64,000 nucleotides of DNA, taken from Phycisphaerales bacterium (lineage in GTDB: Bacteria > Planctomycetota > Phycisphaerae > Phycisphaerales > UBA1924). The notes beneath the pieces were generated by a model. It saw only the letters and a list, made by a program, of their open reading frames with translations, was not told the origin of the DNA and made no database searches. The DNA lies in assembly GCA_029260435.1 (NCBI GenBank), contig JAJDDG010000005.1:1-64000 (forward strand). Direction: 5' to 3'. The position numbers and the translations under genes are program-made. The stretch's first letter is position 1. Each line of letters begins with the position of its first letter. Shown here piece after piece: positions 1,181 through 52,763 of this stretch.

Positions 1181-1437
1181 GCTACACGCAAACGCCAGTC
1201 CCGCCCCTTCTCCCCTTGGGGGAGAAGGTGATCGAACGACCCGTATGGAGAGTGAGATCGGATGAGGGGTCTTCCTCTTTCTCTCCGTGCCACCGATCCG
1301 CCGCGGCGGATCAGTGCTCTTCCGTCCTAACCCGACGGAGTACCTACCCTCCATCCGCAGGACGAATGTCCCTTCTTCCTCACAAAAATGCCACGCGCAC
1401 GCGTGGTAGATAAACAGACTTCTTGTAAAAGCGCGGG

Positions 1438-2979
1438 ATGTTGTTGAGCATGGTGTCTATGACCGCACCCACCGACCCTCCTCCACCCACCGATCCCCCC
1501 GAAGACCAACCGCCCGAACCACGGGAGCAACCCGCGCGCCCGCCCATCAGCGCAGATGATTTCGGCCCCGACAACCCGCCCAACCGCCAGCAGTGCCGCC
1601 AACTCCTTGTAGAAGCAAGCTACGATGCCAAGAAGATCGAGGCGTGGAACGAGTTGAGAAAGCGCATGGGTTGGCAATGGGAACCCGATCTCTCTGACAA
1701 GAAAGATTGCTGGGATGCGTGCGACATAGGATTATCTGTCCTGGGTGAGGGCGCCGAGCGCATTACAGCGGATCTGCAAAAAGCCCATCTAGAAGGGGCG
1801 GATCTAATGCTTTCCAGCCTCAAAGGTGTACATCTGTCTTATGCCAACCTTGAAGGGGCGGTTCTCAGGGACACCACATTTCGCAAGCAACCGAAAACGA
1901 GGCGAATATTCATCCGCGTCTACAGGATGTGCATCAAATACATCCGCAAAGGAAGGTGGCATGCACTGCGGAGAGTACTCTCTCTGCTTTCCCCGGAGTG
2001 GGGCTTCATCGACACGTTCATCTCCGGACGCGCAGGTCTGGGTGATTCGGACACATTCACACCCTCAACCGTCCTCGATAACGTCGATCTCCATGGCAAC
2101 ACAGGCTTCACCGCGCACGGCCAATCCGCCCGCGGCACACGCTTCGACCCCGCCGCCAAAGACCCCTACAGCATCCTCCGCCGCAAATACACCGGCCCGC
2201 TCATGCTTTTCACGCTTGTCTTCCTCGCAATGTTCTTCACGCCCTACCTCATCCGCGCAGGCGCATGGACCGCCGCCTCGCGTGTGCAGACCGCGTTGGT
2301 CGTGGCGGACGACTCCGCTCCAAAGTCATGGCCCGTCCTCCTGCGCGAGTCTTCAAGCGATCTGCAACATGCATCAGCCGAACTCCGCGCCACAGCACAA
2401 AGCCAATCCGATTTGCGCGAGTTGGTATTCAAATGGACAAACCGACTCGAAGCCGCAAACGCGAACATCCAACTCGCCATCGACCGCATCCCGGGTGAGA
2501 CGAAAGTTGCAGTCAATCTGACCAACGCACTGGAAGGCATTAATGCCGAACTCATGTCAACGGTGAGCACGCTGGGTTCAACAGCAGGCGCCACCGAAGC
2601 AAGCCTCCTGCGCGCAAGCGATGCGATCGCCGAACTATCCGAGCGCTTGAATACGCACGCCCAAACAACCAAACGCCAAGTCTGGTCCATCGTCCTCGGC
2701 TTCCGCGCCGGATTCTGGGGGTGGCTCGCCGGCGTCTTATCCATCATCTTCTTGTTCTATAACGTCCTCCGCGCATGCGTCACATGGTGGATGAGCCAGG
2801 TGCGCGACGCCGAAGAGCGCTCCGGGCACCTCCCCGAGATCCAGCAGTACTGGTGGTGTTTCTCCCTCCACCGCTTCGTACTCCAACCGATCTTTATCTT
2901 TGCCGTGTTCTCCTTTGTCTGGCACACGATCCTCTGGTTGAAAGAAGAGGTGGACGTACCCATCCAGTTCCTCCAATAG
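1438..2979 (+). CDS. pentapeptide-repeat protein with a C-terminal multi-pass membrane region
   Basis: ADLQKAHLEGADLMLSSLKGVHLSYANLEGAVLRD pentapeptide repeats and a Pro-rich N-terminus. Several hydrophobic helices lie at the C-terminus. Start uncertain. Confidence 0.4.
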   Translation: MLLSMVSMTAPTDPPPPTDPPEDQPPEPREQPARPPISADDFGPDNPPNRQQCRQLLVEASYDAKKIEAWNELRKRMGWQWEPDLSDKKDCWDACDIGLSVLGEGAERITADLQKAHLEGADLMLSSLKGVHLSYANLEGAVLRDTTFRKQPKTRRIFIRVYRMCIKYIRKGRWHALRRVLSLLSPEWGFIDTFISGRAGLGDSDTFTPSTVLDNVDLHGNTGFTAHGQSARGTRFDPAAKDPYSILRRKYTGPLMLFTLVFLAMFFTPYLIRAGAWTAASRVQTALVVADDSAPKSWPVLLRESSSDLQHASAELRATAQSQSDLRELVFKWTNRLEAANANIQLAIDRIPGETKVAVNLTNALEGINAELMSTVSTLGSTAGATEASLLRASDAIAELSERLNTHAQTTKRQVWSIVLGFRAGFWGWLAGVLSIIFLFYNVLRACVTWWMSQVRDAEERSGHLPEIQQYWWCFSLHRFVLQPIFIFAVFSFVWHTILWLKEEVDVPIQFLQ

Positions 2980-3032
2980 CCCCAATCTCCTTACTTCTCG
3001 CCATCGGCGCACTTTTTACCGATAATGCTCAC

Positions 3033-3956
3033 ATGGCAAAGAAAGGCCCAGCCCTCTACGAACTGATCCAGCAGCAGGCACAGCGGAGCCGACCCACCTC
3101 CGTCGTCACCCGACCCGCTGTCCCCGTCAAACCCGAGCGGGCCGCCCCCCCCTCAGGCCCGCCCACAGGTGCGCCGCCCATCGCGCACCACCCCGCGGCT
3201 TCCAAGCCCGCCCCGTCGCCGCAAACCTATGCTGGCAAAGCAGATACCGCTCCCATGAGCAATCCGCACGACTCGTGGCTCTCCCAGGGCAAGACCTACC
3301 GCATCCCCGCCGGGTACATCGTCATGGCGGTCATCCTGTTGGTGCTCCTCCCGATCGTCAGCTATTCGATCGGGTTCCAGGTCTCCAAAAACCAGCATGC
3401 AGCCGCTCAAACCAAAGAAAGCCTTGACCAGTACTCCAAAATCAACGACCCCACCCTCGCCAATAACCAGGCCCGTTCCGCCACCCTCCCGCAGTCAAAC
3501 CCTGCCAATAACCCCACTACGACCACCAACTCACCCGCCGGTTCTTCGCCTGCAAATACCGGCGCAAACCGCCCTATAGACCTCGCAGCGGGCTCTACTC
3601 CGCAGAATACCCCCGCCGCCGGGCCCATCCAGGGCGTCAAACTGGGCTCGGGCGACCCCGATCGCCGCACCGTCGGGCTGAACTACTACATCCTCGCCTC
3701 CTTCCTCCAGACCGAGGAGGCCGACAGGGCTGTCGATTTCTTTGCCGCAAACGGGGTTGCAGTAATGCGTCAGGCACCGAATAATAGGGGGCTCTGCACC
3801 TTGGTCGCCCTGGAGGGCTTCCCGTCGGGTGATACCCAGAGCCAGCGCGCCCGCGACTACAAGGCAACGCTGCTCAAACTCGGCAGGGAGTACAAAAGGA
3901 ACCACCGGGGCGGCACAGATTTTTCAGACCTGTACCTCAAGAAACATCGCCCGTGA
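3033..3956 (+). CDS. hypothetical proline-rich single-pass membrane protein
   Basis: ATG at 3033 (MAKKGPALYE) inside ORF 2775..3956; TM helix IVMAVILLVLLPIVSY; low-complexity Pro/Thr/Asn linker then a globular C-terminal domain. Confidence 0.45.
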   Translation: MAKKGPALYELIQQQAQRSRPTSVVTRPAVPVKPERAAPPSGPPTGAPPIAHHPAASKPAPSPQTYAGKADTAPMSNPHDSWLSQGKTYRIPAGYIVMAVILLVLLPIVSYSIGFQVSKNQHAAAQTKESLDQYSKINDPTLANNQARSATLPQSNPANNPTTTTNSPAGSSPANTGANRPIDLAAGSTPQNTPAAGPIQGVKLGSGDPDRRTVGLNYYILASFLQTEEADRAVDFFAANGVAVMRQAPNNRGLCTLVALEGFPSGDTQSQRARDYKATLLKLGREYKRNHRGGTDFSDLYLKKHRP

Positions 3957-22397: not shown

Positions 22398-22532
22398 GGT
22401 GCCACGCCTTGGCCCGAAAGGCAAGGCGTGCTCTTATCAATTTTGGGGTGGCATGCTCACGCTTCAGCGCGAGCATGTCTTCTCTCCGTTCATCATCCCC
22501 GTGCCACTGACCCGTCCTCGGGTCAGTGCTCT
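22398..22532. repeat. composite REP-like element (family 2 hairpin GGTGCCACGCCTTGGCCCGAAAGGCAAGGCGTGCTC plus a family 1 hairpin)
   Basis: The same two-hairpin arrangement recurs at 41094..41173. Confidence 0.75.
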
Positions 22533-29149: not shown

Positions 29150-29258
29150 GTGCCACTGACCTCCCCGAAGGGAAGGTCAGTGCTCTTCTCCCTACATCTT
29201 CCGTGTGGCATATCCACGCTGCAGCGCCGGGTGCCACTGGCGGCTTGTCCGCCAGTGC
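29150..29258. repeat. adjacent family 1 and family 3 (GGGTGCCACTGGCGGCTTGTCCGCCAGTGCC) palindromes in the uvrB/permease divergent intergenic region
   Basis: Two perfect hairpins 45 nt apart. Family 3 is also the head of the 230-bp element. Confidence 0.8.
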
Positions 29259-29303
29259 CAGATCCCTGCTGCCTTTGGTCCCCCCGCCTATCATCCCCTC
29301 CCC

Positions 29304-30419: not shown

Positions 30420-30560
30420 CTCCGCGGGTGCCGTGGTATACGTCGCAGGCGTAAACCACGATCTCTCAACGGGTGCTCTTTCTTCTACCCCTCTCTCCTG
30501 TCGAGGACACGCCGAAGGCGTGCCGCAGATCCGCCGAAGGCGGGATGCCCGGTATCTCTC

Positions 30561-36904: not shown

Positions 36905-37130
36905 GGGCAAGGCGCAGGGTGCCACTGGCGGCTTGCCCGCCAGTGTCCAGCCTACTCAAACAAACATGACGCTCAGTATCGCACGAATACAACGCGTTTC
37001 CACCGCCCGCCGCTTCTTCGTCAGAAAAATGCCATGCGTAGCATGGCTGGAAAATAAAATGTCTTCGGGGGGTGCGGGGGATTCTTCCCTCGCATCGCAT
37101 ACAACGAATACATTGCCGTTCTTGAAGTAT
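36905..37130 (+). repeat. ~230-bp structured repeat element, copy A
   Basis: GGGTGCCACTGGCGGCTTGCCCGCCAGTG hairpin, then a GCCATGC-gta-GCATGGC hairpin, then a GCGGGGGA-ttct-TCCCTCGC hairpin. About 80% identical to the copies at 45978, 49296(rc) and 49970(rc). Confidence 0.8.
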
Positions 37131-41093: not shown

Positions 41094-41173
41094 GGTGCCA
41101 CGACCTTGGCCCGGAGGGCAAGGCGTGCTTCTCATCTCTTTCGTGCCACTGACCTGTCTTCAGGTCAGTGCTT
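41094..41173. repeat. composite REP-like element (family 2 plus family 1 hairpins)
   Basis: GGTGCCACGACCTTGGCCCGGAGGGCAAGGCGTGCTT then GTGCCACTGACCTGTCTTCAGGTCAGTGCTT. Confidence 0.75.
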
Positions 41174-45977: not shown

Positions 45978-46200
45978 ACCATCGCCGGGTGCCACTGGCG
46001 GCTTGTCCGCCAGTGTCCGCCCTGCTCAAGAAAACGTAACGCGCACCGTCACTCGAACACAACGCATCCCCGCCGCACGCCCCTTCTTCCTTTGAAAAAA
46101 GCCATGCGAAGCATGGCATAAAGACAATCTCTCTTGAGGGGGTGCGGGGGATCCCTCCCCCGCATCGCGCATGTCTCGTCCGCCGCAGCACGCACGCCGT
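45978..46200 (+). repeat. ~230-bp structured repeat element, copy B
   Basis: Same three hairpins as copy A, in the same order and orientation. Confidence 0.8.
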
Positions 46201-46220: not shown

Positions 46221-46784
46221 ATGCCGCCGTCTTCTCCCAAACTCATTTTCCTCATCGGGCTCCGCGGCTCGGGCAAGACCACCCTCGGGCGCATGCTCGC
46301 CGAGCACCTCGGCGCATCGTTCGACGATCTCGACGACCTCGTCCGTGCGCACTTCGGTGTCGATACGATCCGCGAGATCTGGGAGACCGCCGGCGAGCGC
46401 GCATTCCGCGAGCAGGAAGCCGTGTGCATCAAGGACACCATCGCGGCGCACACTACCGCCGGACAGGAATCGATCCCGAGGGTCATCGCGCTCGGCGGCG
46501 GTTCGCCGACCGCCCCCGGAGCAAATAACACTCTCGTAGAGGCGCAGAACGCCGCCGTTTGCGACGTCATCTACCTCGATGCGCCCCCAGCGACGCTCGC
46601 CGCGCGCATCAACGCGTGCGATCCGGACCGACCGAGCCTCACGGGTACCGATCCTGTGCGCGAAGTCACCGCGGTGCATACGCAGAGACACAGCATGTAT
46701 GCGCAGCTCGCGCGCCACTCCGTGGACGCATCGGGCACCCTTGATGCTGTCCTGGCGCGCATCATTAGTGCACTCGAATCATAA
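46221..46784 (+). CDS. aroK: shikimate kinase
   Basis: LIGLRGSGKTTLGRMLAE P-loop plus a DxD shikimate-binding region. Confidence 0.85.
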   Translation: MPPSSPKLIFLIGLRGSGKTTLGRMLAEHLGASFDDLDDLVRAHFGVDTIREIWETAGERAFREQEAVCIKDTIAAHTTAGQESIPRVIALGGGSPTAPGANNTLVEAQNAAVCDVIYLDAPPATLAARINACDPDRPSLTGTDPVREVTAVHTQRHSMYAQLARHSVDASGTLDAVLARIISALES

Positions 46785-46835
46785 TTTTTCAGAGATGAAA
46801 AACGATGGATGGGGTGGTGGTGGAGGAGCGGGGGG

Positions 46836-47228
46836 TTAGGCGGCGAGCGAGTAGCGACCGCTCTCAAGGCGTTCCATGAGCCGCTGCTGATCGCCCGGCA
46901 TCACAAACCGCTTGAACACACACGCCATCCGCACAGGCCCGTTGTCCTCGACATCGTCCTCGTTGATCCACACAACATTCGCGAACGCGTACACCGGGCG
47001 GCGCTGGGAAAACCGCAGCGACTCCTGCCCCGGTAGTGTCAATCGGATCGCGACACTCGTGCCCGGCTCGATCGGGTAATCGAGTTCGAACCGCATCCCG
47101 CCCTCGGAAACGTCGTACGCGTGACCGGACCACTGGAATGTGTCGTTGTCGAGCGGGCGGATATCCACACGCGTGTACATCGAGGGGAGCGTGTAACGCT
47201 GGTGCTGGCGGCGGTTGTTCCCGTACAT
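46836..47228 (-). CDS. PilZ-domain c-di-GMP receptor
   Basis: RRQHQRY and DVSEGGMRFE motifs. The start could also be 47249. Confidence 0.7.
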   Translation of the reverse strand: MYGNNRRQHQRYTLPSMYTRVDIRPLDNDTFQWSGHAYDVSEGGMRFELDYPIEPGTSVAIRLTLPGQESLRFSQRRPVYAFANVVWINEDDVEDNGPVRMACVFKRFVMPGDQQRLMERLESGRYSLAA

Positions 47229-47353
47229 GACTGGCCTCCCTTGGCGCAATTCGGCCCTTGGCTGATAGCGCTATCGGTCGGCGGCGGGGCGGGGTTGAGC
47301 GGGTTGTGTGGTTGCGCCCGGTCGTGGCGCGGGGGAGCCCCGTATGTGGGGGG

Positions 47354-47815
47354 CTACGTTCGGGCGGCGATCAATTCGAGACTGACGCGGTCGATCGGCA
47401 GCCCGAGTTCGGCCTCGATCTGCTGCACCAGTTCGCTCGGGAACGACGCGAGGAGTTTTTTACCCAGGTGATGCGGCACATCGATGATCGAGCCGTCGGG
47501 CGATGTGATGTGCAGATGATCCGAGGTGTCGGCGTCGTAGCGGGTGGGGCCGCTCGCGGTGGGGATGCACCGGATGATGCCGGCTTTGCAGAAGGTTTCG
47601 AGTGTGTTGTAGACGGTGGCGAGCGAGGAGCACGAGCAGTTGCACCCGAGCATGTCGCGCAGTTGCTCTGCGGTGGGGTGGGTGTCCGTTTTCGCGAGGG
47701 CGCGGTAGAGCTCGAGGCGCTGCTTGGTGCAGCGCAGCCCGGCTTCGGCGAATAAAGATCTGATCTGTTGATCGCAATCGACCATCAGTTGGGTCACCTC
47801 GTTTCGATGGAGCAT
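47354..47815 (-). CDS. fur: Fur-family transcriptional regulator
   Basis: LRCTKQRLELYRAL...HPTAEQL...SLATVYNTLETF winged-helix region. HHxxxxC-type metal-site residues. Confidence 0.8.
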   Translation of the reverse strand: MLHRNEVTQLMVDCDQQIRSLFAEAGLRCTKQRLELYRALAKTDTHPTAEQLRDMLGCNCSCSSLATVYNTLETFCKAGIIRCIPTASGPTRYDADTSDHLHITSPDGSIIDVPHHLGKKLLASFPSELVQQIEAELGLPIDRVSLELIAART

Positions 47816-47879
47816 TCTTACAGGGCAATCGGCGCAAGGCGAGCCGATTACTTCGATTCGTTGAGATTGCGAATGAGTC

Positions 47880-48389
47880 TCAAGAAGAAGACGACGCTTC
47901 GGCGGCTTCCGGGGTTCTATGGTCTGACGGCGGCTCGAAGACCATTTTGTAGTGTGGGATCCCGGCTTCCTGGTATTCGTCTTCCATTTTGGACCACCCC
48001 ATGGACTCATAAAATTCGATGGCGCCAACGCGGGCGCTGCACCAGAGGGATTTCAGGGCGAGTTCGCCGAATGCCCGGCGTTCGAGTTCGGCGACGAGTC
48101 GGCGGGCGATGCCCTCGCGCTGGCGCTGGGGATCAACGACCATCTGCATCAGCTTGGCGGTGCCCTTGGTTGGGTAGTCCGGTAACAGGCAGACGCACCC
48201 GATGACCCGCTCACCCGAGGGGTGGTTGACGACGGCGACGATGTGTTCGCAGGCGGCTTCGGAGCCTGGGAAGAGCTTGTCGAGGTCGTCCATGTCGATG
48301 CCGATGGGCTTGAGCAGCACCCGGACGCGCAGCGCAACCTCTTGTGTATAAAGAGGATGCTGCTGATCGATGCGGATGACACGGATCAT
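47880..48389 (-). CDS. GNAT-family N-acetyltransferase
   Basis: QRQREGIARRLVAELERRAFGEL acetyl-CoA-binding motif A. Confidence 0.8.
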   Translation of the reverse strand: MIRVIRIDQQHPLYTQEVALRVRVLLKPIGIDMDDLDKLFPGSEAACEHIVAVVNHPSGERVIGCVCLLPDYPTKGTAKLMQMVVDPQRQREGIARRLVAELERRAFGELALKSLWCSARVGAIEFYESMGWSKMEDEYQEAGIPHYKMVFEPPSDHRTPEAAEASSSS

Positions 48390-48479
48390 GTAGAAGCTCG
48401 CTGCGTATGGCCCGGTGGGACGGTGTATTCAAGGATAGTATCCACTTACCGGGGCGGCGTTCAATCATCGATCCCGGTG

Positions 48480-49295
48480 ATGGGTAAAACTCGTGGAGTT
48501 GGTGGGTGCGACGGGGTTTGGAGACGGCGCGTGGCGAAGCGGCGGGTAGAAGAAGATCGGCGGCTGCTGTGTGAGGGGTGCGGGTACGACCTGACGGGGC
48601 TTGCGGGTGAAGGCGATGGTGGGAGGGCTTGCCCGGAGTGCGGGAGGGGGATCAACGAGTCGAAGCCCGTGCATCGGACGGGGACGGCGTGGCAGCGAAT
48701 CGGCGGGGTGCGCGGGTGGTGGGGATCGCTGGTGGAGTTGGTGCGTGGGAATCAGCAGATGTGGGAAGAGGCGCGGGTGGGATGGCGGACCGACCGGCAT
48801 TTGGCGCTATTCAATGCCGTCGCTGCGGGTGGGCTCGTCGTAGCGGGACTTGTCACCAACGGCATCTTTGGAACCAGTTTCCGAGAGGTAGCCGAGGTAA
48901 CCGTCGTTGTGCTGATTCTCTTCTGGTGGGTGCTCGTTCATCTGATAACGACATCGCTCGTGCTGATAATGATCTGGATTGAGCATGTCGGCATTCGATT
49001 CTTCGGGAAACGACGGGGATGGCGAATTAGCGAGGGGGTTGCGTGGACGGTTGTGGGTCACGCGAGCTATGGGTGGCTGGTGAGCGGGGTTTTGTGCGGC
49101 GTGCTGATGCTCGAGCCGGTTCGGATGAATATGCCGTGGCGAGATATGGAGTTGCCGTTTTTAGCAGGGCATATCGATGGATACCTCATCACGCTGATTG
49201 GCGCGGCGCTGTGGGGGATGATTGTGTTTGAGATTTGTGTGTATCTGGGTGTGCGGAAGATGCGGTATGCGAACCCTCCAACAATCACGCAGTGA
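48480..49295 (+). CDS. zinc-ribbon (CEGC-x18-CPECG) multi-pass membrane protein
   Basis: ATG 48480. N-terminal Cys motif, then ~5 TM helices. The 3' third is duplicated at 49589..49969. Confidence 0.55.
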   Translation: MGKTRGVGGCDGVWRRRVAKRRVEEDRRLLCEGCGYDLTGLAGEGDGGRACPECGRGINESKPVHRTGTAWQRIGGVRGWWGSLVELVRGNQQMWEEARVGWRTDRHLALFNAVAAGGLVVAGLVTNGIFGTSFREVAEVTVVVLILFWWVLVHLITTSLVLIMIWIEHVGIRFFGKRRGWRISEGVAWTVVGHASYGWLVSGVLCGVLMLEPVRMNMPWRDMELPFLAGHIDGYLITLIGAALWGMIVFEICVYLGVRKMRYANPPTITQ

Positions 49296-49585
49296 CACGC
49301 TTCTCGATTCACGATGCGGGGGAAGTGTCCCCCGTTTACCCCCCCTTTATGTTTCGCAATGCGGGGGAAGAATCCCCCGCACCCCCTCAGGAAGAAGAAG
49401 GCATCGGGGATCAGGTGCCGAGCATCAGGAAGAAGCTATTTTTCAGCCACGCTTCGCGTGGCTTTTTTCTGAGGAAGAAGGAGCGGGCGGCGGGGAAGCA
49501 TTTAGTTCGTGTAATGGTGTGTGTTCCGTTTGTTTGAACAGGGCGGGCACTGGCGGACAAGCCGCAGTGGCACCCGGCGTTTCCA
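49296..49585 (-). repeat. ~230-bp structured repeat element, copy C (inverted orientation, internally expanded)
   Basis: The reverse complement aligns with copies A and B. The middle hairpin carries compensatory changes (GCCACGC/GCGTGGC), and the terminal hairpin is partly duplicated. Confidence 0.8.
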
Positions 49586-49588
49586 CGT

Positions 49589-49969
49589 TTGGATCGATGG
49601 CTGTTGCTTGGGTTATTAATCGTGCTGGCCGTTGGTGGTATTACTTTGCTACTGACTGGTGTTGAGCAGAAAGGGATTCGGTTCTTTGGGAACCGGCGCG
49701 GGTGGCGGATTTCGGAGGGTGTGGGATGGACGGTTGTTGGGCACGCGAGCTACGGGTGGCTGGTGAGTGGGGTGCTGATGCTCGAGCCGGTTCGGATGAA
49801 TATGCCGTGGCGAGATATGGAGGTGCCGTTTTTAATGTCGGATATCGATGGGTACCTCATCACGCTGATTGGCGCGGCGCTGTGGGGGATGATTGTGTTT
49901 GAGATTTGTGTGTATCTGGGAGTGCGGAAGATGCGGTATGCGAATCCGCCGGGAGTTGTTTCTTCTTGA
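49589..49969 (+). pseudogene. partial paralog (3' membrane module) of the 48480..49295 gene, with no ATG (TTG/GTG only)
   Basis: The last ~95 aa are ~90% identical to the C-terminus of 48480..49295. The nucleotides are near-identical from GCTGGTGAG onward. Confidence 0.5.
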
Positions 49970-50175
49970 AATGCGATGCGGGGGGCAAGCCCCCCGCATC
50001 CCCCGAAGAGATGCTGTTTATCTGCCACGCTCCCCCACACACAGGCGTGGGGCATTTTTCTGAGGAAGAAGGAGCGGGCACAGGGTATGTGTTGTGTTCA
50101 TGTGATGGACGCGTCACGATTGTTTGAGCAGGCCGGACACTGGCGGACAAGCCGCCAGTGGCACCCGGCGTTGAA
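49970..50175 (-). repeat. ~230-bp structured repeat element, copy D (inverted orientation)
   Basis: The reverse complement aligns with copies A-C. The GGTGCCACTGGCGGCTTGTCCGCCAGTG head is intact. Confidence 0.8.
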
Positions 50176-50299
50176 AGTGAACCAGTATCCGGAATGCCTA
50201 GTTCAATGCGATTTTAAATAAATTGATCCCTAGGACAAACAGGATGAATCCAATGCCCAGACTGATGAGCGATATGAACACCCAGCCGAGGACAATGCC

Positions 50300-50560
50300 C
50301 TATGCAATCGTGAGAACTGGTTGTTCATCAAACTTGCTGCTGGTGTACATCTGAAACGGTCTGGATTCAATCTCGGTGCGTGCCTTTATTCCTGGCACGG
50401 TGATGGGTTGTCCACATCTCAAGCACCTTATGGCTTCGCCTGCCAGATTGATCGAATCCTCATTCTCAAGCCGACAATTTGGACACGAATGCTTAATTGT
50501 AATACGACCGGTCGTGCGGCATCGCTTTAACTGATACGGAATTGGCTTCTGATCTGTCAT
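50300..50560 (-). CDS. small zinc-ribbon protein (CPNC-x15-CLRCG) in a low-GC patch
   Basis: 86 aa from CAT 50558-50560 with GGAG upstream; two CxxC pairs; GC ~47% versus ~66% in the flanks. Confidence 0.45.
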   Translation of the reverse strand: MTDQKPIPYQLKRCRTTGRITIKHSCPNCRLENEDSINLAGEAIRCLRCGQPITVPGIKARTEIESRPFQMYTSSKFDEQPVLTIA

Positions 50561-50773
50561 CACGGGCTCCGTTCGTTTGGCCTGGTCAGCGCGGCCCGAT
50601 TGTCTCCGTGATGCTACGTTCAATCAAGCAAGCCATTCATCACTTCTCTTGATACGCCGGCGCGAAAAGGGCAGGCGTGGGTTCGTGTTTGTGTGAGGGG
50701 ATAGGGTTCGGGAGGGGGATCTGAGTGGTTAGGCGCGCAAAATGACGGCTGAGCCACATATCCGACCGGGGCC

Positions 50774-51085
50774 ATGCTGAACGATTACGGGCATAATCCT
50801 CCTACGGGTGGAGGGAGGTTGAGGATGGCGGTGAGGGTGTTCTACACGGGGGTGTTGGAACGGAGCGGGGATTCGATGGTTGTCCGGACGATCGGGCCGT
50901 CGGGCGGGGATGGGGAGATCGAACTGGATGAGCCGCAGGTGGTGATCGACTCGGCGAAGCTGCGCCGGTGGGTGCATGAGCACGCGGGGGAAGCGGGGGA
51001 GGAGCCGTACGGGGTGACGCTTCGGTTTAGGCGCGTGACAGGTGAGGAGGCGGAGGAGGCGCTGGAGTCTGTTGAGGAGGGGTAG
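50774..51085 (+). CDS. hypothetical acidic protein
   Basis: ORF only; weak support. Confidence 0.3.
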   Translation: MLNDYGHNPPTGGGRLRMAVRVFYTGVLERSGDSMVVRTIGPSGGDGEIELDEPQVVIDSAKLRRWVHEHAGEAGEEPYGVTLRFRRVTGEEAEEALESVEEG

Positions 51086-51428
51086 GGAGGTTGGGGAGGG
51101 TCTGTTTTCAGTGATGCTGCGCGTCACTTTTATGTAAGGAAGTAAAGATGAAGAGCACTGACCCGAGGACGGGTCAGTGGCACGGGGAGAAGAGCGTCGA
51201 TTGGCACGGAGGGCAAGCGGTGGCACTCAGCGTGTTGGATCGTGGTTTACGCCTACGGCGTATACCACGGCACCCGGCTGGAGATGGTGGTGGATGATGA
51301 ATAGAAGTGTTCAAAGCATGTGAAGACCCCCTCACCCGGTCTCATCCCGGCGCGCCGGGATTCGACCACCCTCTCCCTGGAAAGGGAGAGGGGGCAGGAC
51401 AGGATTCGGCGGGGTAGAGTAGTCGGCG

Positions 51429-52763
51429 ATGTTTGAACGACGACCAACACGGCAGATTGTGCTCGGTGACGAGCGGGTGGGGATTGTGCGTATCGGGGGC
51501 GGTGCGCCGACGGCGCGGCACCCGGAGGCGACGCTGGATAGCGCGGCGGAGGACGGCGGGCCTGCGCCGGTGGTCGTGCAGACGATGACGGCGGGGTACA
51601 CCTACGACGTGGACGCGTGCGTCATGGAGATCAACAAGCTCGCGGCGGCGGGGGCGGATGTTGTGCGGGTGGCTGTTCCGGAGAAGAAGGACACGGCGGC
51701 GCTCAAGGAGATTATCCCGCGGGTTCGGGTGGCGATCGTTGCGGATGTGCATTTTCATTTTCAGCGTGCACTGGAGGCGGTGGAGGCGGGCGTACACAAG
51801 ATCAGGCTTAATCCTGGGAACATCTCGGATCGGGCGCAGGTGGATGAGGTGATCGACGCGTGCAAGGCGCAGGGGATACCCATCCGGGTCGGGGTGAACG
51901 AGGGGTCGATCATCGAGCGGAAGGACAAGCAGCAGCGGAAGGAAGAGCTGGGTAAGTTTTTCGAGAAGTCCAATGTCGGCGGGCACAACGCGCATCTGCT
52001 TGCGCTGATGATCGTGAAGCTCGAAGAATATATGGACATCTTTACGGCGCGCGATTTCCACGATGTGTGCATCAGCGCGAAGTCGATGGACGCGGCGTTT
52101 GTTGTTGATGTGTATCGCGAGGTTTCGAGGCGGTTTGATTACCCGCTGCACCTCGGGGTGACGCACGCTGGTCCAAAGGAAACGGGCGCGATCCGCTCGA
52201 TCGCGGCGCTGAGCGGGCTGCTGTGTCAGGGGATCGGGGACACGGTGCGGATCAGCTACGCGAACGATCCGGTGTTTGAGGTGGAGGACGGGCTCGAGCT
52301 GTGTTATTCGCTGAGCCTGCGTGAGCGGAAGGGTGTGGACCTGATCGCGTGCCCGACGTGCGGGCGGATCCAGGTGGATCTGTTCACGCTTGTGCAGGAT
52401 GTGCGCAAGAAGCTGGCGGCGGATATCAGGGTGCCGATGAAGGTTGCGGTGATGGGGTGTGTGGTGAATGGGCCGGGCGAGGCGGAGGGCGCGGATGTTG
52501 CGGTGTTTGCGGGAGATCGCAAGGGGATTATTTATGTGCAGGGTGAGCGGGTGGCGAATGTGACGGAGGAGGAGATTCTTGAGCGGCTGCACGCGGAGTG
52601 CATGGCGTTTCAGGATCGGGTAGAGCGCGGTGAGGCGAAGCTGGGTGAGAAGGTGGTGGAGATTGTGCCGCCCGATCCGATCGGGGAGCTGGGCTCGGGC
52701 GAGGCGATTATCGCGCGGGGTGATGTGAGCACGGTGACGCCGCTTACGGTGGGCGGGGAGTGA
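51429..52763 (+). CDS. ispG: 4-hydroxy-3-methylbut-2-enyl diphosphate synthase
   Basis: GcpE TIM-barrel N-domain and a 4Fe-4S C-domain (CPTCGR...C). 444 aa, with an insertion relative to the short bacterial form. Confidence 0.9.
   Translation: MFERRPTRQIVLGDERVGIVRIGGGAPTARHPEATLDSAAEDGGPAPVVVQTMTAGYTYDVDACVMEINKLAAAGADVVRVAVPEKKDTAALKEIIPRVRVAIVADVHFHFQRALEAVEAGVHKIRLNPGNISDRAQVDEVIDACKAQGIPIRVGVNEGSIIERKDKQQRKEELGKFFEKSNVGGHNAHLLALMIVKLEEYMDIFTARDFHDVCISAKSMDAAFVVDVYREVSRRFDYPLHLGVTHAGPKETGAIRSIAALSGLLCQGIGDTVRISYANDPVFEVEDGLELCYSLSLRERKGVDLIACPTCGRIQVDLFTLVQDVRKKLAADIRVPMKVAVMGCVVNGPGEAEGADVAVFAGDRKGIIYVQGERVANVTEEEILERLHAECMAFQDRVERGEAKLGEKVVEIVPPDPIGELGSGEAIIARGDVSTVTPLTVGGE

Follow-up and report, generated by a model that had tools for sequence, protein, structure and literature searches.

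A 5'-truncated, probably functional paralog of a zinc-ribbon membrane protein gene beside structured repeats in a Phycisphaerales bacterium

The DNA considered here, the first 64,000 nucleotides (nt) of contig JAJDDG010000005.1 of a Phycisphaerales bacterium (hereafter the window, meaning this whole stretch; GC 63%), contains a gene for a membrane protein with a zinc ribbon, which we call gene 1, and behind it, in the same orientation, a second open reading frame (ORF), ORF2, that is a repeat of roughly the final third of gene 1. A copy of a structured intergenic element lies behind the stop codon of each. Our subject is the origin of ORF2 and whether it is a gene or a relic. The two coding sequences are as follows.

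48480-49295, plus strand: gene 1, a zinc-ribbon membrane protein of 271 amino acids (aa), assigned from its ORF and translation
49589-49969, plus strand: ORF2, 126 aa, with a TTG start and no zinc ribbon, made up of one N-terminal membrane helix and a conserved C-terminal module

The N-terminus of gene 1 is a Cys4 zinc ribbon (CEGCGYDL...CPECG); four membrane helices are predicted in the protein, and its conserved motifs are GIRFFGxRRGWR, GHASYGW and FExxVYxGVRxMRYAN. An initial protein search returned 40 homologues, and a search with profile A2 returned 4870 cluster representatives of the family, the best 150 of which are all full length (227-421 aa). Within the collections searched, the best protein match has 50% identity and the best related locus 37%. 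Pfam, NCBIfam and PDB sequence searches with gene 1 gave no relative beyond generic or weak zinc-ribbon matches, and a structural search with its AlphaFold2 (AF2) model gave no meaningful neighbour; the model itself has a predicted local distance difference test (pLDDT) score of 90.3 and a predicted template modelling (pTM) score of 0.86. The gene 1 family is large, unnamed, Fur-linked and uncharacterised, with a predicted fold that is confident and has no solved relative, and its conserved neighbours, Fur, GNAT, PilZ and ispG, are the only hint as to function. An N-terminal CxxCGY-x(n)-CPECG ribbon followed by GxPWQ, the pattern used as a test for the family, is found in gene 1 but not in ORF2, and the motifs of the C-terminal membrane module (E-x2-G-IRFF-G-x-RRGWR, HASxGW and FExxVYxGxRxxRxAN) occur in both. 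Because it lacks the zinc ribbon, ORF2 is a fragment-type relative and not a canonical family member.

A repeat search resolves the duplication into two direct repeat blocks, 48964-49090 against 49647-49773 (76% identity, offset 683) and 49093-49279 against 49764-49950 (93% identity, offset 671). The shift in offset from 683 to 671 reflects a 12-nt in-frame indel, such that the residues CGVL are missing from ORF2, as had been proposed in the sequence-only reading of this DNA that we followed up. That reading also described a gene piece and element repeated downstream; the direct repeat is real, though its homology starts at about 48964/49647 and not at 48990/49684. With the 3' end of gene 1 as the query, the downstream copy is the only other BLAST match in the window (84.7% over 301 nt, E = 2e-96), and the repeat period of >500 nt is beyond detection by Tandem Repeats Finder (TRF). 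The copies were compared by segment using a codon alignment, Nei-Gojobori counts of synonymous and non-synonymous differences (per-site proportions pS and pN, with dS and dN the corresponding distances), Fisher tests, and shuffles for the length of identical runs. The segments, in gene 1 coordinates, are listed here.

48918-48980: helix-coding 5' end in gene 1, saturated relative to ORF2, DNA not alignable
48964-49085, plus strand: old, unconverted part of gene 1, with its partner at 49647-49768 in ORF2; 30 mismatches in 122 nt, 75% identity
48981-49085: segment I, 35 codons; pS 0.59, pN 0.10, dS ~1.15, dN/dS ~0.09
49086-49097, plus strand: 12-nt indel, the CGVL codons, in gene 1 only; placement ambiguous by a few bases
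49098-49280, plus strand: segment II, the homogenised tract, 61 codons, with its partner at 49769-49951; 13 mismatches in 183 nt, 93% identity, pS 0.155
49152-49170, plus strand: divergent patch within the converted tract, with its partner at 49823-49841; 7 of the 13 tract mismatches, 7 codons, with the changes L225V, A229M, G230S and H231D
49281-49292 onward: gene tail, the last ~4-5 codons and stops, unrelated between gene 1 and ORF2

The divergence between the two copies is clearly mosaic. Its proximal part shows the roughly 75% identity that had been noted before, and the near-identity that had been thought to run to the stop does hold over 49098-49280, though it ends at 49280/49951, where the unrelated tails begin, and is broken by the patch. 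The pS value drops from 0.59 in segment I to 0.155 in segment II (Fisher P = 2.5e-4), and the mismatches at all sites go from 30/122 to 13/183 (P = 3.5e-5). The longest stretch without a mismatch, 68 nt, lies in segment II, and shuffles reach this length in 0.04% of cases (P = 4e-4). As an outgroup we took the closest syntenic contig, L036 (a Logan assembly), the ispG of which is 85% identical at the DNA level to that in the window. In segment I, pS is 0.59 between gene 1 and ORF2, 0.65 between gene 1 and L036, and 0.48 between ORF2 and L036; since these three values are alike, the duplication is about as old as the split from the L036 lineage. In segment II each window copy has a pS of ~0.53 to L036 and of 0.155 to the other copy, and therefore, being equidistant from the outgroup and close to one another, the copies were homogenised within this lineage. 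As judged from sequence divergence, the mosaic speaks for an old duplication, with gene conversion or a later second partial copying to follow, which is what the sequence-only reading had suggested.

The frame of ORF2 opens at 49538, and its first start codon is the TTG at 49589; no in-frame ATG is present before codon 64, in line with the earlier remark that the copy has no ATG start. The identity of the ORF2 protein is 75% with gene 1, 60% with the L036 orthologue and 42% with gene 1 of L037, another related locus, and there is no match to gene 2 of L037; ORF2 belongs to the first-copy subtype and is unrelated to the second-copy paralogs of the relatives. Of the predicted membrane helices it retains the last three, together with the conserved motifs on the cytoplasmic side, and its AF2 model (pLDDT 88, pTM 0.70) has the same secondary-structure elements as the C-terminal module of gene 1. 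The first 20 codons are unalignable as DNA, yet they encode a hydrophobic helix in register with the second membrane helix of the family. Searches of Pfam and NCBIfam with ORF2 gave no match.

The evidence for coding comes mainly from segment I, in which 15 differences are synonymous (25.5 sites) and 8 non-synonymous (79.5 sites; Fisher P = 1e-6), with the mismatches concentrated at third-codon positions. By our own calculation, neutral drift of ORF2 since the duplication would have given a pN of ~0.4, versus the 0.10 observed. Segment I diverged almost only synonymously, and therefore both copies kept coding for most of that time. Tests for a pseudogene found no stop or frameshift over the 126 codons, the indel in frame, and a dN/dS of ~0.09 that is not relaxed; the nearly invariant residues of the family are retained, except that VAWTV has become VGWTV (A to G). 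Of the two fates that had been offered for this copy, a pseudogene or a small membrane protein, these results favor the latter, and a pseudogene dating from the duplication is disfavored. We conclude from these sequence comparisons that selection at the protein level has acted on ORF2 through most of its history; its present expression we infer, and a functional small membrane protein is probably what it still encodes.

Taken together, we put at about 0.6 the probability that gene 1 has in ORF2 a genuine paralog, truncated at its 5' end, in an expansion-prone locus, with its distal part homogenised by conversion. In the proposed course of events, the 3' part of gene 1 would have undergone a partial tandem duplication about as long ago as the L036 split. 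One or more intrachromosomal gene conversions between the direct repeats would then account for the distal near-identity, and the places where conversion stopped would be close to the 12-nt indel at one end and the unrelated gene tails at the opposite end. ORF2 would be translated from the TTG at 49589 to give a three-helix membrane protein with its N-terminus outside and without the cytoplasmic zinc ribbon, and it probably acts beside gene 1, perhaps as partner or competitor within a common membrane assembly. The elements would be a dispersed, lineage-specific structured repeat that has an intrinsic-terminator-like hairpin and ends in a widespread hairpin resembling repetitive extragenic palindromic (REP) sequences, and they most likely arrived or were renewed after the original duplication, of which they need not be the cause.

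Several observations weigh against this explanation. ORF2 lacks, along with an ATG, a recognisable Shine-Dalgarno (SD) sequence upstream, and a sigma-70-like scan of the upstream region is empty, with the proviso that promoters of this phylum may differ from the rules of the scan. A terminator-like hairpin with a T-run stands 120 nt upstream of ORF2. The replacement of a well-conserved A by G and the loss of four membrane-helix residues also count against it, and the selection signal comes from 35 codons only, with which a recent death of ORF2 would be compatible. A stand-alone C-terminal module is absent among the 37 related loci. A second, later partial duplication could in principle also yield the low distal synonymous divergence, and if the elements are conserved by selection rather than young, they may have been duplicated together with the gene piece.

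The last of these points requires a description of the elements. The repeat that had been put at 230 bp is real, with a length of ~190-205 nt in copies A, B and D and of ~270-285 nt in copy C only, which has a second first-hairpin and a 39-nt insertion. The copies found in the window are the following.

36913-37102, minus strand: copy A, downstream of a plus-strand acyltransferase gene, in the opposite orientation to it
45983-46171, minus strand: copy B, between an unannotated plus-strand ORF and the shikimate kinase gene; fold z = -4.35
49296-49581, plus strand: copy C, behind the gene 1 stop, consisting of an extra first hairpin (49311-49341), hairpin 1 (49356-49386), the 39-nt insertion, a terminator-like hairpin (49445-49463) followed by a T-run, a GAGGAAGAAGGAG box, and hairpin 3 (49549-49573, with a 1-nt deletion)
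49970-50172, plus strand: copy D, behind the ORF2 stop, fold z = -3.5, consisting of hairpin 1 (49975-50000, with an A-T pair compensated to G-C), a terminator-like hairpin (50033-50052) followed by a T-run, the GAGGAAGAAGGAG box, and hairpin 3 (50138-50164)
29222-29259 and 1371-1424 (minus strand): partial copies

The four full copies have a common layout. Each begins with hairpin 1 (GCGGGGGA...TCCCCCGC), a C-run and a small hairpin, continues with hairpin 2 and its T-run (the terminator-like part), the box GAGGAAGAAGGAGCGGGC and ~60 variable nt, and ends with hairpin 3 (CACTGGCGGACAAGCCGCCAGTG) and then GCACCCGGCG. The folds beat those of shuffled controls, and the consensus of the four copies contains 4 compensated pairs. 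The ~200-nt composite may be a structured RNA, as the U-run of the terminator-like hairpin can pair with the conserved GAGGAAGAAGG box. No Rfam family was found over the window at gathering thresholds, and at E <= 1 the region 49250-51450 gave only Chlorobi-1, not a credible match with 17 bits where the gathering score is 50. As for features of a miniature inverted-repeat transposable element (MITE), the ends carry no terminal inverted repeat (TIR), and no duplicated flank is present among five left flanks. A promoter or leader cassette for co-oriented genes was ruled out, with copy A standing behind a gene on the opposite strand, and so, by eye, was a sigma-54 promoter (TGGCAC), the -12 element being absent or mis-spaced in all copies.

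The explanation that survives best after the one we favor holds that there was one tandem duplication of the 3' end of gene 1 together with an element, that the terminal hairpin was its breakpoint or trigger, and that the distal part was homogenised later. We regard this as possible, if somewhat unlikely. The right junction is exact: ORF2 starts 8 nt past the end of copy C (49581), an identical 17-mer, CAGTGGCACCCGGCGTT, is found at 49565-49581 and 50156-50172, and two T's past the consensus end occur in C and D only. Copies C and D have the same orientation, each just behind the stop of its gene copy. Hairpin 3 falls in a REP-like family, and hairpin families of the REP and IS200/IS605 type are known to be nicked or to stall replication. 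The elements themselves, however, do not look like sister copies. At an offset of ~591, C and D have 78% identity over 49455-49517/50046-50108 and 90% over 49527-49565/50117-50155, but overall the pairwise identities among A to D are star-like, all between 76.5 and 80.7%, with C-D at 78.2%, C-B at 80.7% and A-D at 77.5%. Since C and D are no closer than other pairs, they are not demonstrably sisters, and they also differ in internal make-up. Their divergence of 0.22 lies far under the neutral 0.59 of segment I and near that of segment II, so that the elements either spread after the duplication or are under constraint. The stretches linking the converted tract to each element, 49281-49310 and 49952-49972, are unrelated. 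Finally, the left boundary, at about 48906-48964, lies inside gene 1 and has no element, so the earlier statement that the duplication junctions coincide with the element is correct for the right junction only. The further claims made for the element, that it was duplicated as a unit with the gene piece and that it is implicated in the rearrangement, were not borne out by these comparisons: the duplication mechanism is of a kind ordinary in bacteria, and a causal role of the element is unsupported though possible.

With respect to ORF2 itself, the alternative to a functional paralog is a non-expressed relic or pseudogene that looks intact only through repeated conversion from gene 1, which we consider improbable. 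The missing start and promoter signals, the terminator-like hairpin directly upstream, the A to G change and the four deleted helix residues are as this explanation would have them, and two thirds of the conserved part of ORF2 is a recent copy of gene 1. The part that has not been refreshed, however, is where a relic should have decayed, and it shows a pN of 0.10 at a pS of 0.59, with mostly third-codon mismatches, in a frame that is uninterrupted through its 126 codons; the first 20 of these likewise still encode a clean hydrophobic helix in the family register. We also considered a joint reading, in which ORF2 is expressed as a ribbon-less subunit that joins its full-length parent in the membrane, recurrent conversion keeps the interface identical while the exposed hairpin loop varies, and the rearrangement was seeded by the terminal hairpin of the element, which, with its family's orientation tracking the direction of replication, would be handled as single-stranded DNA (ssDNA) by some enzyme. 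As a combined account this is improbable.

The divergent patch in the homogenised tract deserves separate mention. It is 19 nt long and is flanked by 54 and 110 near-identical nt; in the AF2 model it falls in a predicted beta-hairpin (E224-227/E230-233), a loop between the last two membrane helices, and it corresponds to the most variable stretch of the family alignment. The sequence diagnostic of ORF2 is DMEVPFLMSDIDGY, versus DMELPFLAGHIDGY in gene 1. This arrangement of conserved, variable and conserved sequence, with four amino acid changes in a predicted loop, could suggest that ORF2 is a silent donor cassette in the manner of Neisseria pilS or Borrelia vls, moving the variable patch into gene 1, and ORF2 is indeed 5'-truncated, without evident start signals, and beside a gene with which conversion is evidenced. 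Such a cassette is very unlikely nonetheless: the single partial copy in the window would allow two variants at most, the proximal unconverted segment has its own protein-level constraint, which a silent cassette does not need, and nothing hints at surface exposure of the protein to hosts or predators. Least credible of all is an assembly artefact, in which strain variants or distant paralogs were stitched together at the repeated element: ~200-nt repeats with 78-100% local identity are typical mis-join points, and the genome of the window lies outside the collections searched (best protein match 50%, best locus 37%), but artefacts yield identical copies, and these differ by up to 25%, with an in-frame indel and an unrelated 5' helix and tail, more than strain variants would diverge, while the ORF is coherent at both junctions and the GC skew is continuous and positive over 48-64 kb.

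The locus and its relatives bear on the favored explanation, that of a real truncated paralog, through the history of tandem copies at this position. A scan based on a 7-sequence alignment yielded 37 related loci (L001-L037), and by tblastn of their flanks Fur is present in 22/37, PilZ in 21/37 and GNAT in 18/37; in the four loci read directly (L018, L032, L036 and L037), Fur is just upstream on the opposite strand. The neighbouring features in the window are given below.

46836-47249, minus strand: PilZ (Pfam), upstream of gene 1 and divergent from it
47354-~47800, minus strand: Fur family (Pfam), likewise upstream and divergent
47880-48389, minus strand: GNAT acetyltransferase (Pfam), likewise upstream and divergent
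50173-51428: spacer before ispG, with a low-GC patch at ~50200-50400 (46%), a minus-strand ORF at 50300-50623, and hairpins at 51156-51183 and 51241-51273
51429-52763, plus strand: ispG, which in the closest relatives lies directly downstream of the gene 1 orthologue

A neighbourhood conserved in Phycisphaerae can be recognised across L001-L037 and at 46221-52763 of the window: shikimate kinase, PilZ (minus), Fur (minus), GNAT (minus), the zinc-ribbon gene (plus, 1-4 copies) and ispG (plus). A major facilitator superfamily (MFS) transporter sometimes stands between the zinc-ribbon membrane gene or genes and ispG. In L036 shikimate kinase is followed by PilZ, Fur and GNAT, these by the gene 1 orthologue, and ispG begins 10 nt past the stop of that orthologue; neither ORF2 nor the elements are present at this locus. 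Since L036 has no ORF2, elements or spacer, the window holds ~2.1 kb of extra sequence (49296-51428). Short repeats within the spacer are common to six other window sites. Of the ORFs in the spacer, one of 107 aa on the minus strand (CPNC...CLRC) had no homologue in our searches, and one of 103 aa on the plus strand had no family match.

Full-length tandem paralogs occur at this locus in relatives more distant than L036, namely L037 (two), L018 (two), L034 (three) and L023 (four), and partial second matches in L007, L019 and L030. Given these multi-copy loci, tandem expansion is habitual at this slot. Full-length pairs in relatives had been named in the sequence-only reading as the finding that would speak against it; they do exist in the four loci just named, but the extra copies have their own zinc ribbon, are highly diverged and are of a different subtype, and are not orthologues of ORF2, and L036 has a single gene. 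Among the loci compared, only the window showed a copy of the first-copy type without a ribbon. Candidates for a stand-alone C-terminal module were examined and rejected. At L036 2350-3192 and L037 1637-2335, P0001 (191 aa) and P0037 (171 aa) are calls of full-length genes that miss the N-terminus, as in-frame sequence further upstream encodes the zinc ribbon, and the candidate in L032 is a full-length gene with a partial tblastn match. In L033 and L035 the gene is cut by the contig ends. The apparent non-ATG start of the L036 gene means that non-ATG starts do occur in the gene 1 family.

Hairpin 3, the terminal module of the element, is also part of a wider family. It consists of a 27-nt GC-rich palindrome and a conserved single-stranded tail, and is intergenic and multi-copy; the window holds 15 strong hairpins of the form stem-loop-stem followed by GCAC (64 kb), and CAGTGGCAC occurs 10 times versus 0.55 expected. 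The family is of the type CACTG-stem-loop-stem-CAGTGGCAC(C/G). The hairpins are located as follows.

Minus strand (11, left of 46.1 kb): 615-645, 668-695, 1287-1316, 22399-22430, 22501-22528, 29150-29182, 29231-29257, 30428-30460, 36919-36945, 41143-41170 and 45989-46015
Plus strand (4, right of 49.5 kb): 49549-49573, 50138-50164, 51156-51183 and 51241-51273

The flip in hairpin orientation coincides with a sharp and very strong switch in GC skew, from ~-0.2 to ~+0.35, at ~47 kb. Values of -0.16 to -0.28 prevail over 14-46 kb and of +0.23 to +0.41 over 48-64 kb, and the cumulative skew reaches its minimum near 46 kb; at 4-14 kb the skew is weakly positive, unlike its surroundings, and genes on both strands are found on both sides of the switch. 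The switch could be a replication origin or the breakpoint of a large inversion. DnaA-box-like 9-mers are not clustered near it, which leaves an origin (oriC) at this position unsupported. The polarity of the hairpins would be expected for sequences handled as ssDNA in replication, or for chromosome-polarity motifs.

Outside the window, the exact 24-mer core of hairpin 3, CTGGCGGRCAAGCCGCCAGTGGCA, is present in at least 120 metagenome contigs (L038-L157) from sediments, soils, lakes and hypersaline mats, with a GC content of 56-78%. There it is often found as inverted doublets ~25 nt apart (e.g., L039, L047 and L119), whereas the window copies are single. Among the matches listed, partner hairpins have compensated stems (CACTGGCTG/CAGCCAGTG, CACGGGCAG/CTGCCCGTG and others), and the motif is on the G-rich strand in 44 of 66 independent contigs (P = 0.009). 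The other parts of the composite element did not turn up in the hairpin-bearing contigs listed, the 24-mer core is absent from the viral contigs searched, and no description of the hairpin sequence was found in the published literature. REP sequences carry a foot, GTAG or CGTC, or CnGA for class 3 (PMC3733652, PMC6006769), and the flanks of hairpin 3 (..CA|CTGG.. and ..CAGTG|GCACCC) contain none of the published feet. In those window ORFs that were scanned, no gene for a Y1 (RAYT/TnpA-REP) transposase was detected, and tblastn over the 64 kb with a Y1 segment of class-3-like type found none either. In L112, at 2300-3120, a class-3-like Y1 (IS200-type, NHVH) segment sits within an ORF of MmeI-type restriction-modification, bracketed by ~70-nt direct repeats with the hairpin CCCCGCATTCATGCGGGG, in an arrangement that resembles an in-frame insertion sequence (IS) insertion. 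A link to a Y1 transposase via L112 was ruled out, its Y1 gene, the only one seen in a hairpin-bearing contig, being flanked by other hairpins and having no relative in the window.

The locus is a clean, small case of domain-level duplication and gene conversion in a little-studied phylum. It illustrates that a truncated ORF without an evident start, behind a repeat, can bear a clear signature of coding selection, and annotators should keep such ORFs. A natural ribbon-less variant could also help to dissect the gene 1 family. The polarised hairpin family and the GC-skew switch are potentially more valuable and more unusual leads than the duplication.

Several known systems resemble parts of what is seen here. 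Hairpin 3 is like the REP, BIME and REPIN sequences, and the hairpins of class 3 TnpA-Y1 REPtrons, in being a short, intergenic, multi-copy palindrome with inverted doublets and compensated stems (PMC3733652, PMC6006769), and its orientation follows a replication-type skew, as expected of elements handled as ssDNA. Unlike REPs, it has no GTAG, CGTC or CnGA foot and no Y1 transposase among the window ORFs scanned; it is spread as an exact 24-mer over at least 120 contigs from many environments, where REPs are usually species-specific; and in the window it forms the 3' module of a longer composite element not found elsewhere. The pilE/pilS and vlsE/vls systems share with this locus a 5'-truncated partial copy without evident start signals beside a full gene, segmental conversion, and a small variable patch within identical flanks; they differ in that there is here a single partial copy, with coding constraint of its own in the unconverted part. 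The arrays in Phycisphaerae (L018, L023, L034 and L037) occupy the same slot, with Fur/GNAT on one side and ispG on the other, and are closely packed and oriented alike, but their copies are full length, with the ribbon, and very diverged, and gene 2 of L037 lacks GIRFFG, whereas ORF2 is ribbon-less. The tufA and tufB genes are bacterial paralogs that undergo concerted evolution via intrachromosomal gene conversion. In the present case the second copy is instead 5'-truncated and domain-only, the tract is ~185 nt, and the copies are 290 nt apart with a structured repeat between them. As in such concerted paralogs, however, the copies are direct repeats with mosaic divergence, a tract is sharply less diverged than the rest, and, measured against the outgroup, homogenisation is confined to this genome.

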